A DNA stretch of 60,018 nucleotides from positions 1-60,018 of the forward strand of contig JABIQV010000001.1 in the NCBI GenBank assembly GCA_018699495.1, written 5' to 3'. This stretch comes from a bacterium. GTDB taxonomy: Bacteria; Margulisbacteria; Marinamargulisbacteria; JABIPA01. A program made the position numbers and the translations under genes. The notes under the pieces were generated by a model that worked only from the letters and a program-made list of their open reading frames with translations, had not been told where the DNA came from and did not search any database. This document shows, in pieces, positions 2,515 through 60,014 of this stretch (positions within the stretch are counted from its first letter, which is position 1; the number at the start of each line of letters is the position of its first letter).

Positions 2515-2544
2515 TTGACGCCCCCTTTTTTATACTGATATGTT
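2515..2544 (+). promoter_or_regulatory. Putative sigma70 promoter of the mPPase-like/tpiA/ppi unit
   Basis: TTGACG (2515-2520), 18 nt, TGaTATGTT (2536-2544); ATG 6 nt downstream. Confidence 0.5.
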
Positions 2545-2550
2545 GGTTAA

Positions 2551-4563
2551 ATGAATCTTGGATTATCTTTAATTTTGACACTTTCTATATTCTTGACCAC
2601 TTATGGTCTATTTATTTTTCTAAACGTTTCCAAGATAAAAACCGACACGCCTGACCAGAACTTCGTTACGGGCCTAGTTATTGATGGCCTTAAAGCATAC
2701 TGGTATCGCCTATTTAGTTCGATTATCCAAGTTTTAATCTCTTTAATTGCGGTCGTTGCATTATTTACTTATTTTTTTGACAAACTGTTTATGGTGGACC
2801 AAATTCTGGGGTTCCTTATGGGCGGAATTGCTATGCTTCTTGTTTCTTTTGTTAGTTTTACATTATATCCTAAACTCATTCCAGCGATAATCAGCCAAAA
2901 TTTAGGGTACTTAAAAGATGGGATTCTTATTCAATATAAAACGACATCCTCTCTGTCATTTTTAATCAATAGCCTCCCCATGATTTTTCTTTGTATTTCG
3001 TTGTTAATATTTGATATAGAGGTCATTATTGGATTTAGTTTAGGGCTAATATTCACGGCATTATTTTTACGCATTGGTGGAGGTCTTTATTATACTAGTT
3101 CAGATTTGGCTAACCAATTAAGTTTCGAATTTGGTGAAAACATTCCTCAGGACGACAAACGCAACCCAGGTTCAATCATGGAACTTATTGGGATTTATAT
3201 TAGCCAAATAACTGGATTCATTTGCGATGTTTTAGGGTCGTACATATTTTCGGTTGCAGGCTGCTTATTAACCATATTTAGCCTGACAAAATTTCAAATC
3301 GTGCCCAATGAAATACTTAACAACTTTTATTTTTTTCCTTTTATGATGATATTTTCTGGTCTTTCATCATCGTTTATTTCTTATTTTTATTGTGTGGTTA
3401 GAATCAAAAATGGAAAACACTCAAATTTTCTGCTCGAAGGAATTTATTTATCTATTATCCTGTGCGGATTTTCTGCGTTTATTGTTTCCCGAATTACCGC
3501 CAATCAAATTGTTTCGTTCTTGCCGTTTATATTTGGTCTAATTGGGGCCATTTTAATATGTTTTTTATCTGAATACATTACCTCTCAACGGTTTCAGCCG
3601 AGTAAACCATCTTGCAGCACTGCCCAATTTGGAAGTATTCTTCCTTTTTTAAGCAGTAGTTCTTTAGGATACAAGACAAATAGTGTTTTTTTATTTATTT
3701 CGTTTTCCTTTCTCTCTGCTAGTTATTTGGTTTCCGGTACCGTTGGAATGATTATCGCAATATTTGGATTTGTTTCTGTTACGCACACTATTTTACAAAC
3801 CAAGATCTTCTCTCATTTTTCTGTAATAACTTCAAAACTCTCGACACTTAGCTCTGCAAAACAAATATCGATGCACCATCTAAAAAAAACAGAGGAGATA
3901 GGGTCTACCACAGTAGCCGTTGGAAATGGATATGCCACTGCAGCAGCGATTCTTGCAACGTTTTCTATATTATTTTCATTTATTTATATTCAGCACTACG
4001 ATTTCAAATCACTCCTTATCGTTGATTTTAGATTACTCATAGGGATTCTTATTGGGCTAACATTACCTTTCACCGTTGTAAGTTACTTATTGAAAGCTCT
4101 ATCTTCACAAACCATTACCATTCTTAAAGAGATATCGAGGCAATACAAAGAAATTCCTTATTTAATGGAAAACAAATCACATCCAGACATTATTCGGCTA
4201 TCTGACCACACAACCTTCATGTCTATGAACGCCATGATTGTCCCAGGAATCCTTATTGGACTCGTTCCCATAGCATTGGGTTTCGTTTTTGGAATAAAGC
4301 TCAGCATAGGCTTAATAATCGGCTGTTTTTTTACAGGATTCAATCAAGGCCTCTTTTGGGCAGTTACCGGAGATAGCCTTCATTTTGCTAAACGTCATAT
4401 CGAAGATGGTCATTTTGGAGGTAAAAATAGCGAGACGTTCTATAATATTCGAAGTGTTGATCATATTGGGAAGGCCTATCGTGACCTTTTAAATCCAACC
4501 TTAAATATTTTAATAAAGGCCGTTACAATTATTTCTATCTTTGTCATTTTAAATCTTGCGTAA
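2551..4563 (+). CDS. Membrane-bound H+/Na+-translocating pyrophosphatase (HppA family) homologue with degenerate catalytic motifs
   Basis: Multi-TM 670 aa protein. Scaffold landmarks RIGGG, IPQDDKRNP, EISRQYKEIP, AKRHIEDGHFGGK, NPTLNILIK are recognisable; the catalytic Asp motifs are replaced. Confidence 0.85.
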   Translation: MNLGLSLILTLSIFLTTYGLFIFLNVSKIKTDTPDQNFVTGLVIDGLKAYWYRLFSSIIQVLISLIAVVALFTYFFDKLFMVDQILGFLMGGIAMLLVSFVSFTLYPKLIPAIISQNLGYLKDGILIQYKTTSSLSFLINSLPMIFLCISLLIFDIEVIIGFSLGLIFTALFLRIGGGLYYTSSDLANQLSFEFGENIPQDDKRNPGSIMELIGIYISQITGFICDVLGSYIFSVAGCLLTIFSLTKFQIVPNEILNNFYFFPFMMIFSGLSSSFISYFYCVVRIKNGKHSNFLLEGIYLSIILCGFSAFIVSRITANQIVSFLPFIFGLIGAILICFLSEYITSQRFQPSKPSCSTAQFGSILPFLSSSSLGYKTNSVFLFISFSFLSASYLVSGTVGMIIAIFGFVSVTHTILQTKIFSHFSVITSKLSTLSSAKQISMHHLKKTEEIGSTTVAVGNGYATAAAILATFSILFSFIYIQHYDFKSLLIVDFRLLIGILIGLTLPFTVVSYLLKALSSQTITILKEISRQYKEIPYLMENKSHPDIIRLSDHTTFMSMNAMIVPGILIGLVPIALGFVFGIKLSIGLIIGCFFTGFNQGLFWAVTGDSLHFAKRHIEDGHFGGKNSETFYNIRSVDHIGKAYRDLLNPTLNILIKAVTIISIFVILNLA

Positions 4564-4596
4564 CATATAAAGTATAAATAGAAGGAGTCCACCATA

Positions 4597-5385
4597 ATGA
4601 GAAAGCCAATAATTGCTGCAAACTGGAAAATGAATAAAACGATCAAAGAAAGTCAATTATTCATGCAGAAGTTTTTATTTGATTACACACCTATTAGCTG
4701 TGACATCGTAATTTGTCCGCCCGTAACTGCTCTTTCGAGTGTAGGATCGATTATCTCTGGTTCTTCGTACAGTTCCTCTATAAAATTAGGAACTCAAAAT
4801 TGTCACTGGGAAGAAAAAGGGGCTTACACAGGTGAGGTTTCATTGCCTATGCTCAAAGAATTTTCCGTAAATTCCGTTATCATCGGACACTCAGAACGAC
4901 GCCAATATTTTTCAGAAACGAACCAAACCGTGAATAAAAAACTTAAAGCAATTTATTCTCAAAATTTGCGTCCGATATTCTGTATTGGCGAATCATTAGA
5001 GCAACGAGAAGCTGGGAATACATTCACTGTATTGTCAACGCAATTAAATGAAGGTCTTGATGATATTTCGATTACATCTGGTGAAGATATTGTTATTGCG
5101 TACGAACCTATATGGGCCATTGGCACAGGAAATGTAGCGACTCCAAAACAAATTCAAGCTGTTCATTCGTTTATCCGAGAAACGTTATCTGTATTATTTT
5201 CTCCATCTATTGCATCAGCCATTCGTATTCAATACGGAGGTTCTGTTAAACCATCAAACATTGAATCGATCATGCAATTAAAAGACGTAGATGGGGCATT
5301 GGTAGGTGGTGCAAGTTTAGAACCAGACGACTTTATGAGTCTTATACAGATAGCTTGTAAAGCTAAAGAACAGATACGTTCATAA
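4597..5385 (+). CDS. tpiA: Triosephosphate isomerase
   Basis: AANWKMN, IIGHSERR, AYEPIWAIGTG, YGGSVKP, LVGGASL; RBS GAAGGAG. Confidence 0.98.
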   Translation: MRKPIIAANWKMNKTIKESQLFMQKFLFDYTPISCDIVICPPVTALSSVGSIISGSSYSSSIKLGTQNCHWEEKGAYTGEVSLPMLKEFSVNSVIIGHSERRQYFSETNQTVNKKLKAIYSQNLRPIFCIGESLEQREAGNTFTVLSTQLNEGLDDISITSGEDIVIAYEPIWAIGTGNVATPKQIQAVHSFIRETLSVLFSPSIASAIRIQYGGSVKPSNIESIMQLKDVDGALVGGASLEPDDFMSLIQIACKAKEQIRS

Positions 5386-5413: not shown

Positions 5414-6046
5414 ATGATACATTTTACAAACACTTTTTTTATCAAACGTCTTAAACAATTAGCCCCTTTTATTGTGCTAATCGCTCTGTCACTAAACATA
5501 TGGGCTGAACCCCAACCAAAAATTCTTATCCAGACTAATAAAGGAGATATCATTCTTGAACTAGATGCCGAAAAAGCACCTCTTTCCGTCAAAAACTTTA
5601 TAACCTACACAGAATCGGGATTTTATACCGACACAATATTTCACAGAATCATTAAAAACTTCATGATTCAGGGAGGCGGGTTTACAAAATCATTTGACCG
5701 TAAAAAGGTTAATTCGCCAATTAAAAATGAAGCTAAAAATGGTTTGAAAAATAAAAAAGGAACAATTTCAATGGCCAGAACAAACGTTTGGGATAGTGCG
5801 ACATCTCAATTTTTTATAAATTTGGTAGATAACGGATTTTTAGATAATCAATATGCAGTATTTGGAAAGGTAATCACAGGTATTGAAGTTGTCGATAAAA
5901 TTGGAAACTTAAAAACACAAGCGTTAAACTCTTCATTTCAAAACATTCCCTATGAACCAGTCGTAATAAAATCAGTTACGGTACTAGGAAATAAAAAAAC
6001 GAATAACGCACCGTCCTCTAATAAGAGCACAGAGATACGTAAATAA
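5414..6046 (+). CDS. Cyclophilin-type peptidyl-prolyl isomerase with signal peptide
   Basis: FHRIIKNFMIQGGG, ISMART, ATSQFFIN, YAVFGKV; hydrophobic N-terminus. Confidence 0.95.
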   Translation: MIHFTNTFFIKRLKQLAPFIVLIALSLNIWAEPQPKILIQTNKGDIILELDAEKAPLSVKNFITYTESGFYTDTIFHRIIKNFMIQGGGFTKSFDRKKVNSPIKNEAKNGLKNKKGTISMARTNVWDSATSQFFINLVDNGFLDNQYAVFGKVITGIEVVDKIGNLKTQALNSSFQNIPYEPVVIKSVTVLGNKKTNNAPSSNKSTEIRK

Positions 6047-42594: not shown

Positions 42595-42712
42595 TCTTGG
42601 CCACGACCAACTCTCCCACCAGGGTAACCCGGAAGTACCATAGGCGCTGAAGGACTTAACTACTGTGTTCGGAATGAGAACAGGTGTACCCCCTTCGCTA
42701 TAATGACCAAGA
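42595..42712 (-). rRNA. rrf: 5S rRNA
   Basis: ACACCUGUUCUCAUUCCGAACACAG and GGUACU...GGGAGAGU conserved blocks; terminal helix extended by a perfect 20-bp flanking inverted repeat (42581-42600 / 42707-42726). Confidence 0.97.
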
Positions 42713-42815
42713 TAAATACTCATATGGTTCAACAACTTGGCATTGTTGAACTTGCATTGATACCGAAACTTAGATTTGCCAACCGTCTTGATTTATTATT
42801 CATAGGCCGTTTTAA

Positions 42816-45804
<2,989 letters not shown>

Positions 45805-45893
45805 AAACGGCCCATGAGTAATAAATCATTTCAAATTGAAACAACTTCAAATTGGCAATTTTATTTTCTTAAGATTCTAAATTTCGATATCAA

Positions 45894-59938: not shown

Positions 59939-60014
59939 TGGTGGAGGTAACCGGGATCGAACCGATGACCTTCTGCGTGCAAGGCAGACGCTCTCCCAAC
60001 TGAGCTATACCCCC
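59939..60014 (-). tRNA. tRNA-Ala(TGC)
   Basis: GGGGGTATAGCTCAG...TCTGC CT TGC AC GCAGA...TACCTCCACCA; G3:U70 pair. Confidence 0.96.

Follow-up and report, generated by a model that had tools for sequence, protein, structure and literature searches.

Introduction

Among the pyrophosphatases, the membrane-bound group (M-PPases) is treated as a family in which all members are active H+ or Na+ pumps. In the pumping enzymes, Asp6.43 and Asp16.39 activate the water nucleophile, and Lys12.50, which pairs with Asp6.43, keeps it in check (Li et al. 2016, PMC5150537). The residues given for the ion gate are Asp6.50, Glu6.53/6.57, Ser6.54, Asp/Asn16.46 and Lys16.50 (PMC5150537). M-PPases are reported to be obligate dimers with communication between the subunits (PMC5150537, PMC6530997, PMC10897367), and the coupling of chemistry and transport is regarded as an open question (PMC9408878, PMC5150537). 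Here, we describe a gene in a 60,018-nucleotide stretch of bacterial DNA (contig JABIQV010000001.1 of assembly GCA_018699495.1, positions 1 to 60,018; Marinamargulisbacteria, JABIPA01), the whole of which is referred to as the window. The gene encodes a protein derived from an M-PPase, which is very likely catalytically dead, selected, orthologous among related bacteria and stand-alone; its orthologous family is termed clade B.

Transceptors such as UhpC of Escherichia coli and Snf3/Rgt2 of yeast are transporter-derived sensors that arose from secondary carriers, have kept their substrate sites and have known signalling partners. The window protein resembles them by analogy only, in that a transport fold is kept for a role beyond the ancestral transport cycle; it differs in its ancestor, which was a primary pump, in the erosion of its substrate site and in having no known partner. 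Pseudoenzymes, for their part, are described as often acting as scaffolds (PMC5106787, PMC11266112). They are recognized by clear homology to enzymes whose key catalytic residues they lack, and by purifying selection together with orthologues; both marks are found here, so that by its sequence the window protein may be classed among them. A literature search returned no description of a catalytically dead M-PPase, although it covered few subscription journals and is not proof of absence, and the main text of the Marinamargulisbacteria genome paper makes no mention of M-PPases (PMC6349859).

Loss of the hydrolytic centre

The open reading frame (ORF) is open over 670 codons, and a stop codon immediately precedes its ATG. 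Residues 17-664 of the product match positions 5-644 of the 645 positions of the Pfam profile PF03030 (H_PPase; E 1e-80, 272.6 bits), which agrees with the preliminary description of this DNA as holding a full-length M-PPase homologue on an uninterrupted frame. The nearest solved structures by sequence are the Na+-PPase of Thermotoga maritima (TmPPase; 4av3, E 2.9e-49) and the H+-PPase of Vigna radiata (VrPPase; 4a01, E 1.2e-47); in the search of the Protein Data Bank (PDB), the E-value for TmPPase improves from that obtained with the window protein alone to 1.9e-112 with the family profile. All 12 pyrophosphatase equivalogs of NCBIfam match far under their cut-offs, the best being NF001960 with 270.8 bits vs a cut-off of 546. 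Matches in the ESM Atlas are ordinary PF03030 clusters only, and the name given by the Joint Genome Institute (JGI) to a 94%-identical orthologue is ‘K(+)-stimulated pyrophosphate-energized sodium pump’. The window gene is a real, intact and selected gene for a membrane protein that descends from an M-PPase of the K+-dependent type. Annotation as a sodium or proton pump should not be applied to it, because the catalytic set, the nucleophile pair, the gate glutamate and the equivalog cut-offs all failed.

The hydrolytic centre was scored at 19 Asp, Lys and Asn positions, whose columns were set on the canonical M-PPase of the same genome (L001) and checked against the PDB alignments (4av3, 4a01). 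Residue numbers of the Vigna enzyme serve as labels for these positions. In the same hmmalign alignment, almost every full-length canonical protein retains 19/19 positions. The window protein retains 4/19, namely D185, K614, D637 and D645, and has conservative swaps at three more (E211, R615 and R644). The replacements extend over the motif blocks Y181-G195, I209-Q219, K418-K429, T447-T454, G607-R615 and V636-D645 (Table 1), and all six of the motif replacements listed in the preliminary description were recovered, both in the alignment with L001 and by residue number. Its comment that nearly all Asp and Lys residues binding Mg and pyrophosphate (PPi) are gone likewise holds, and alignment with the Thermotoga and Vigna pumps, which it had proposed as a check, makes the catalytic replacements visible.

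In the block of transmembrane helix (TM) 5, Lys5.58 is replaced by T182, the D257-equivalent by Q189 and the K261-equivalent by E193, and D185 is kept. The TM15 block has H611 in place of the D691-equivalent and R615 in place of the K695-equivalent, with K614 kept; in the TM16 block, D637 and Asp16.39 (D645) are kept, the D727-equivalent is K641 and K16.38 is R644. Counting the nucleophile pair together with Lys12.50, one of the three residues is retained (Q219, D645, N459). The window protein has presumably lost the ability to hydrolyse PPi, because these catalytic residues are replaced.

At the ion gate, the semi-conserved glutamate is missing from both of its positions, G229 standing in place of Glu6.53 and F233 at the position of Glu6.57. 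The other gate residues are present, with Asp6.50 and Ser6.54 kept as D226 and S230 in the gate segment, and N652 and K656 in TM16. The charge of the former active site has changed as well: across five motif blocks (93 columns), the window protein has 13 acidic and 10 basic residues (net -3, plus 4 His) vs medians of 19 and 8 in canonical pumps (net -11), and the clade-B median is net 0. Judged by this net charge, the acidic cage is not preserved.

Although the active site is eroded, the overall architecture is predicted to persist. The AlphaFold2 model, computed from an alignment of 21 family members, is all-helical with a predicted local distance difference test score (pLDDT) of 86.4 and a predicted template modelling score (pTM) of 0.88. 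In Foldseek, it superposes whole-length on TmPPase, VrPPase and PaPPase with query TM-scores (TMq) of 0.86-0.90 at ~20% identity, the TM-score being 0.89 vs TmPPase 8b21. There are 36 PDB matches at E ≤ 0.001, all listed ones being M-PPases, the best with a TMq of 0.89-0.90, and the next unrelated fold follows at E 0.023 with a TMq of 0.10. Given this whole-length superposition on M-PPase structures, the complete 16-helix pump fold with its six inner-ring helices is kept according to the model.

Among the described systems, TmPPase, the K+-dependent Na+-PPase of T. maritima (4AV3, 5LZQ, 8B21), thus provides the closest comparison. Both proteins share the 16-helix fold over the whole length with a root-mean-square deviation of ~3 Å, the order of the conserved blocks, and the residues Arg5.50, Asp6.50, Ser6.54, Asn/Asp16.46 and Lys16.50. 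The window protein furthermore carries V455, a small non-lysine residue, as TmPPase does, at a position where Lys presumably marks K+-independent pumps. It differs from TmPPase in 15/19 residues of the hydrolytic centre, including Asp6.43 and Lys12.50, in the Gly at gate position 6.53 and in the neutralised cage; therefore, neither PPi hydrolysis nor PPi-driven pumping is expected of it.

Selection and constraint

The orthologue in a genome of the same genus (locus L008 of genome G001) has 94% amino-acid identity with the window protein. Between the two genes, 283.5/456.5 synonymous and 48.5/1550.5 nonsynonymous sites differ, corresponding to a synonymous divergence (dS) of 1.32, a nonsynonymous divergence (dN) of 0.032 and a dN/dS of 0.024, a value that is approximate at such a dS and does not vary between the thirds of the gene. 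Between these two genomes, the ratio is 0.020 for the canonical pump and 0.076 for another dead paralogue. The preliminary description had proposed that the fold is kept by selection to serve in a non-hydrolytic role; the low dN/dS, the presence of the family in 41/55 genomes of the class, the predicted full fold, the unconstrained catalytic positions and the real pyrophosphatase alongside all bear this out. A dN/dS near 1 and a lack of orthologues, as expected of a decaying gene, are not what is found.

The distribution of constraint over the protein was derived from the column entropy of 56 non-redundant clade-B proteins vs 127 canonical pumps, with helix thirds taken from the helices of the AlphaFold2 model. 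Conservation in canonical pumps is highest in the cytoplasmic thirds of the inner-ring helices, at a mean entropy of 0.71 bits vs 2.23 in clade B, these values being comparable within each group only. The clade-B value is about that of its outer ring (2.22-2.25), and clade B is instead most conserved in the middle thirds of these inner helices (1.65); entropy in the periplasmic thirds is similar in both groups (2.16 and 2.01). Former catalytic positions range from the 16th to the 96th entropy percentile within clade B, and those lost in the window protein lie mostly above the median, its lost Mg-binding Asp positions between the 55th and 86th percentile. The column of Asp6.43 holds K in 22/56, N in 9/56 and D in 6/56 proteins; that of the D507-equivalent in TM11 holds S in 23/56, A in 10/56 and T in 6/56, with no Asp among the commonest residues; and Lys12.50 is K in 1/56. 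The former Mg/PPi cage at the cytoplasmic ends of the inner helices appears, as far as sequences tell, to have lost both its constraint and its negative charge in clade B.

The most protected residues, at the 2nd-8th entropy percentile, are R5.50 (55/56), D6.50 (55/56), S6.54 (54/56), K16.50 (K in 49, R in 7) and the D-x-R-N stretch of loop 5-6. A second set of conserved residues is specific to clade B and comprises Q60, Y64, Q84, P107, N292, L295, E296, Y299, Y326, E359, K542 and W603, together with a lysine one residue before the lost Lys5.58, which is found in ~80% of the family. Q60 and Y64 lie within TM2, and the model helix 293-316 corresponds to TM8, at the cytoplasmic start of which a clade-specific motif is located (Table 1). 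The window copy retains 73/88 positions that are conserved to at least 80% in the other members; it has lost Y64 (now S), E359 (now Q), Y326 and the shifted lysine.

Origin and spread of the family

When 40 related genomes were searched with the window protein, most were found to hold full-length homologues of ~660-720 aa with 26-40% identity. A profile built from 21 of these (alignment A1, mean column identity 51%) and run on 146 genomes of the phylum matches with 523.9-987.2 bits in 41/55 genomes of the same class; six further genomes of the class contain more divergent relatives (206-372 bits), and eight gave no match at E ≤ 1e-60. None of the 91 genomes of other classes holds a clear orthologue, the best match there (393.5 bits) being a canonical pump with 19/19 positions. 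In a profile search of 1.84 billion representative proteins, 9466 matches were obtained at E ≤ 0.001. The best 150 of these include ~55 members of the eroded family, which retain 0-12 of the 19 positions; the rest of the best 150 have mostly 19/19, with about a dozen partly eroded proteins (11 to 18 of 19) scattered among them.

In trees, clade B forms one side of a branch with support 100, irrespective of whether FastTree (102 rows), IQ-TREE with LG+G4 (53 rows) or IQ-TREE with C20-PMSF is used. Clade B is hence a single orthologous family of one origin, which runs through most of the window's class and spans at least 15 of its families. The branch includes the very divergent loci L044-L046, and the window copy sits on a long branch among the more eroded members. 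Window DNA is contained in marine and seawater metagenomes.

Several relatives show erosion of their own. In L044, L045 and L046 (genomes G034, G007 and G018, all of one bacterial family), the GDxxKD block of TM16 reads AFLYAHYFQW, and Asp6.50 and Lys16.50 remain. Partly eroded M-PPases of ~655-690 aa also occur in other classes (L049, L052, L053, L054 and L055 of genomes G057, G068, G063, G058 and G069); four of this set retain 14-15 of the 19 positions and have Asn in place of Asp6.43, L055 retains 7/19, and the G057 copy contains two in-frame TAA codons. Another partly eroded M-PPase (L037:1041-3050, on G004:C106) clusters in trees with P0122, a representative retaining 11 of 19, and lies ~2.3 kb upstream of the canonical pump of the same genome (L037:5308-7500) on the same strand.

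Active pyrophosphatases in the same genomes

An intact hppA paralogue, the presence of which the preliminary description had put forward as a point to check, does exist in the window genome. This canonical M-PPase, L001 (G000:C95, 769 aa), belongs to the same Pfam family as the window protein and is under equally strong purifying selection. The two differ as follows: L001 scores 859.6 bits and retains 19/19 positions vs about 272 bits and 4/19 for the window copy, their identity is ~25-32% over the aligned parts, the long periplasmic inserts of L001 are absent from the window copy, and they fall into different clades of the tree.

A second group, termed clade C, consists of three or four more eroded M-PPase paralogues in the same genome (G000): L002:1450-3759 on C98, L004:1447-3753 on C95, L005:2-1258 on C115 and L006:1450-2451 on C24. 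The last two may be two halves of one gene, L006 being an N-terminal part that runs off its contig and L005 a C-terminal part that starts at a contig edge; L006 has a mutator-type transposase-like ORF just upstream. Like the window copy, clade-C proteins match PF03030 over the full length, have eroded catalytic motifs and belong to the same genome and class. They differ from it in being longer (~770 aa), in evolving faster (dN/dS 0.076) and in forming a separate clade, with support of 99-100, which is placed among the canonical pumps and away from clade B. A tree that forces clades B and C together has a log-likelihood that is worse by 40.8, with a p-value of 0.066 in the approximately unbiased test (p-AU; LG+G4), so that a single origin of both is disfavoured by the sequences and not rejected at 0.05.

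Across 41 genomes (that of the window and its 40 relatives), with a canonical-type pump defined by 524 bits or more, a canonical pump is present in 21/41 and was not found in 20/41. Nine of the 20 pump-less genomes are at least 90% complete (G009, G010, G013, G015, G020, G022, G024, G027 and G030), and the motifs are intact in all eleven canonical copies inspected. The soluble family-I pyrophosphatase (PF00719) occurs in 14/41 genomes. Canonical pump and soluble enzyme are almost mutually exclusive across the class: 19 genomes have only the former, 12 only the latter, 2 both and 8 neither, so that 33/41 carry one or the other. Eight of the nine well-covered genomes without a canonical pump have the soluble enzyme, and 11/12 of the soluble-only genomes carry clade B. 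Among the eight genomes with neither, seven are 62-89% complete and the eighth, G024, is 91% complete; a search of five of these eight for the family-II marker DHHA2 gave no match.

The class thus swaps two kinds of active pyrophosphatase, and the dead family is kept in both settings. That clade B is kept with or without a canonical pump and beside a real pyrophosphatase argues that it is neither an obligate subunit of the canonical pump nor the pyrophosphatase of the cell; only G024 points in the opposite direction.

Genomic neighbourhood and expression

The window gene leads into tpiA, which encodes triosephosphate isomerase, as had been noted before: tpiA starts 33 nt downstream, a strong GAAGGAG ribosome-binding site lies between the two genes, and no terminator-like hairpin was found there. 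The two genes are probably co-transcribed. Gene order was compared in 19 orthologous loci from 15 families. In 15/19 loci tpiA is immediately downstream, with a gap of at most 36 nt in 13 of the 15, and in two others an HD-domain gene (HD_5) is inserted before it. The cyclophilin gene follows tpiA in 13/19 loci, recO is immediately upstream in 9/19, and mgtE is found one or two genes upstream in 8/19. This order may be plain inheritance and is not itself a functional link. The HD_5 gene (PF13487) directly follows the dead-pump gene in L015 (G016), L018 (G008) and L023 (G003); tpiA then comes next in L015 and L023, and none is present within the locus in L018.

The promoter candidate of the preliminary description remains only a candidate. 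The TG-extended, sigma-70-like match is present, and its -10 element, ending 7 nt before the ATG, would give a near-leaderless mRNA; promoter-like matches are, however, not enriched regionally (7 found vs 15.5 expected in shuffles), which leaves no evidence of a promoter. Rfam and tRNA scans revealed nothing near the window gene. Metatranscriptome contigs from one study (runs X6 and X8) match with at least 99% identity over 2251-2670, 2524-2678, 2907-3057, 3582-3874, 3694-4167, 4149-4299, 4268-4431 and 4537-4813, and contigs from two runs of a second study cover tpiA and the clpX-like gene but not the window gene. Depth is low, carry-over of DNA is possible and uncovered stretches are uninformative, so that the coverage is compatible with expression and is no proof of transcription.

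The divergent neighbour at 1038-2486 on the minus strand encodes an AAA+ protein (AAA_2 and AAA matches) with an acidic N-terminal extension of ~120-160 residues; it has no other Pfam match at E ≤ 1e-5 and, by eye, is ClpX-like without the zinc-finger domain. Further away, 23S and 5S rRNA genes are located at 42595-45805 (minus strand) with no 16S gene within 14 kb upstream, so that the rRNA genes may be unlinked, and a tRNA-Ala gene is found at the window end (59939-60014).

Table 1. The window gene, its motif blocks and adjacent features; numbering starts at the first letter of the window.
Feature	Position	Strand	Basis
Candidate promoter, sigma-70-like match TTGACG-18-TATGTT (TG-extended)	2515..2544	+	consensus scan
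Gene for the membrane-pyrophosphatase-derived protein (clade B orthologue)	2551..4563	+	ORF, full-length PF03030, AlphaFold2 model, dN/dS
R174 (Arg5.50), buried arginine of the coupling funnel/gate, kept	3070..3072	+	R in 55/56 clade-B proteins, entropy 2nd percentile
TM5 block YTSSDLANQLSFEFG in place of TKAADVGADLVGKVE	3091..3135	+	alignments
Loop 5-6 lid motif D202-K-R204-N205-P206, kept	3154..3168	+	entropy 5th-8th percentile in clade B; (near-)invariant in alignment A1
TM6 block IMELIGIYISQ in place of IADNVGDNVGD; Asp6.43 replaced by Q219	3175..3207	+	alignments
Gate segment	3226..3249	+	alignments to 4av3, 4a01; clade-B column counts
Clade-specific motif N292-x-x-L295-E296-x-x-Y299, cytoplasmic start of TM8	3424..3447	+	98%, 95%, 95%, 100% in clade B; not in canonical pumps
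TM11 block KIFSHFSVITSK in place of DAFGPIADNAGG; both Asp lost	3802..3837	+	alignments
TM12 block TEEIGSTT...N459; Asn534-equivalent replaced by S452, Lys12.50 by N459	3889..3927	+	alignments; N in 42/56 clade-B proteins
Cytoplasmic loop 13-14, E527-x2-R-Q531-x3-I535-P536-x-L538-x3-K542-x2-P545-D546	4129..4188	+	invariant A1 columns; K542, L538 clade-specific
TM15 block GDSLHFAKR in place of GGAWDNAKK	4369..4395	+	alignments
TM16 block VDHIGKAYRD in place of GDTVGDPFKD	4456..4485	+	alignments
Gate residues N652 (Asn16.46) and K656 (Lys16.50), kept	4504..4518	+	K in 49/56, R in 7/56
tpiA (triosephosphate isomerase)	4597..5385	+	PF00121 E 2.4e-94
Peptidyl-prolyl isomerase of the cyclophilin type, third in the conserved gene run	5414..6046	+	PF00160 E 4.6e-48

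Possible roles of the protein

On balance, we consider it likely that the protein is a stand-alone, non-hydrolytic derivative of the pump, which probably binds or conducts ions via its membrane core. On this view, the cage that hydrolyses PPi has eroded and the 16-helix membrane scaffold has stayed. The buried Arg5.50-Asp6.50-Ser6.54-Lys16.50 network, without the gate glutamate, would bind or pass a cation, and control would rest with the DxRNP lid and the cytoplasmic residues specific to the clade instead of with PPi hydrolysis. The protein would act alone, presumably as a homodimer like its relatives, being neither a partner of the canonical pump nor the cell's pyrophosphatase. That the retained gate network still binds or passes H+ or Na+, controlled from the cytoplasmic side without PPi hydrolysis, is suggested tentatively, since protection is strongest for the charged network to which the transported ion binds in real pumps. 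A more definite version, in which a primary pump has turned into a PPi-independent gated cation conduit or an ion-sensing ‘transceptor’ with an active R5.50-D6.50-S6.54-K16.50 core, is possible but somewhat doubtful.

A number of observations weigh against the reading as a stand-alone, non-hydrolytic derivative that binds or conducts ions. The known route of gate opening is missing, as Lys12.50, Asp6.43 and the gate Glu have all been lost, and the R-D-S-K network could be kept only as a buried ion pair that joins TM5, TM6 and TM16, which needs no ion transport. The conservation of the K694-equivalent (K/R in 49/56) and of K16.38 (K/R in 46/56) fits ligand binding equally. Less eroded members retain up to 12/19 positions (e.g. 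P0053), and G024, 91% complete, is without a canonical pump, PF00719 or DHHA2, so that residual or altered catalysis may exist somewhere in clade B. The entropy comparison sets one class (clade B) against many phyla (canonical pumps), and dS is near saturation, which makes dN/dS approximate, with the contrast still plain. Over the long term, clade B has evolved at ~2x the rate of the canonical pump (32-47% vs 57-73% identity for the same 10 genome pairs). Finally, the same-genus orthologue (L008 on G001:C74; also L027 = JABIPA010000004.1) carries a TAA at codon 84 (L008:1750-1752), and the NCBI annotation at this locus covers only the 576-aa remainder as a ‘hypothetical protein’. Codon 84 encodes Gln in P0001, the 670-aa version found in other assemblies of this species, so that the TAA is either a polymorphism or an assembly error.

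Among the other roles that the fold could serve, a membrane scaffold or anchor is unlikely though conceivable: a dimeric platform of 16 helices per subunit whose cytoplasmic loops bind a soluble partner (TpiA, the cyclophilin or another protein), with the R-D-K network purely structural. Clade-specific residues in loops and helix ends on the cytoplasmic side (TM2, Q60/Y64; start of TM8, N292/E296/Y299; loop 13-14, K542), the tight linkage to tpiA throughout the class (15/19 loci plus 2), the loss of the known gate-opening machinery and the scaffold role common among pseudoenzymes (PMC5106787, PMC11266112) would all suit it. Yet conservation is best in the mid-membrane parts of the inner helices and not on the cytoplasmic face, gene order alone is no sign of binding and is perhaps inherited, no adjacent partner of unknown function is conserved, and the window copy itself has lost two of the clade-specific residues, Y64 and E359. 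A ligand receptor is quite unlikely; in this case an anionic phospho-ligand, be it Pi, PPi or some phosphorylated metabolite, would bind in the neutral or basic funnel with no Mg-dependent hydrolysis, and the protein would respond to it as a transporter-like sensor. It would account for the moderate conservation of the phosphate-contacting lysines (the K694-equivalent and K16.38), the shifted lysine before Lys5.58, the nearly invariant DxRNP lid of loop 5-6 and the extra basic pocket residues of the window copy (K418, K429, K641, R615 and R644). Most pocket positions vary freely, however, which speaks against a single specific ligand; conservation in the cytoplasmic thirds of the inner helices does not exceed that of the outer ring, and there is neither an output domain nor a conserved signalling partner nearby.

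The distribution of real pyrophosphatases bears on two further explanations. That the dead copy heterodimerises with the canonical M-PPase of its genome and tunes it, in the way of dead paralogues in other enzyme families and as the preliminary description had envisaged beside a passive ion conduit and a sensor, draws on the obligate dimers and inter-subunit communication reported for M-PPases (PMC5150537, PMC6530997, PMC10897367) and on the presence of L001 in the window genome. As a general role it is disfavoured by the genomes with clade B but no canonical pump: 20/41 related genomes have clade-B relatives and lack the pump, nine of these being at least 90% complete, and 11/12 of the genomes with only the soluble enzyme still have clade B. 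The window gene and L001 moreover lie on different contigs, and such a subunit is very improbable. Very improbable indeed is an enzyme that still hydrolyses PPi or another phospho-substrate at a remodelled, Mg-poor site. Asp16.39 is kept in 44/56 clade-B proteins and the D723- and D279-equivalents in 35/56 and 32/56, P0053-type members retain 12 positions, and G024 shows no other pyrophosphatase; against this stand the rarity of Asp6.43 (6/56) and Lys12.50 (1/56) in the family, the lack of Asp among the commonest residues at the D507-equivalent, the four positions retained in the window copy, and the real pyrophosphatase in 33/41 genomes, seven of the eight exceptions being less than 90% complete. 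A decaying, functionless gene, to which the eroded catalytic site and the premature TAA in one sister-species assembly could point, has a practically negligible probability and is ruled out by the data on selection and conservation, namely a dN/dS of 0.024 at a dS of 1.32, a frame that is intact in 19/19 orthologous loci other than L008, and conservation across at least 15 families of the class.

Implications

Databases name the window protein as they name the rest of the M-PPase family, and a pump label on it would mislead metabolic reconstructions of uncultured marine bacteria. Within a familiar family of pumps, clade B forms a presumably non-catalytic branch, the function of which probably depends on the membrane core. 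A class-wide, strongly selected and stand-alone member without a hydrolytic centre points to a second use of the pump scaffold. Because the mid-membrane gate is the part that selection preserves, clade B constitutes a natural ‘hydrolysis-free’ pump, in which the way the gate binds or passes ions may be tested, and such studies would bear on the coupling of chemistry and transport in M-PPases. If the protein indeed acts as a conduit or transceptor, the transport path of M-PPases can run uncoupled from the chemistry, and the gate could be studied alone in natural proteins.

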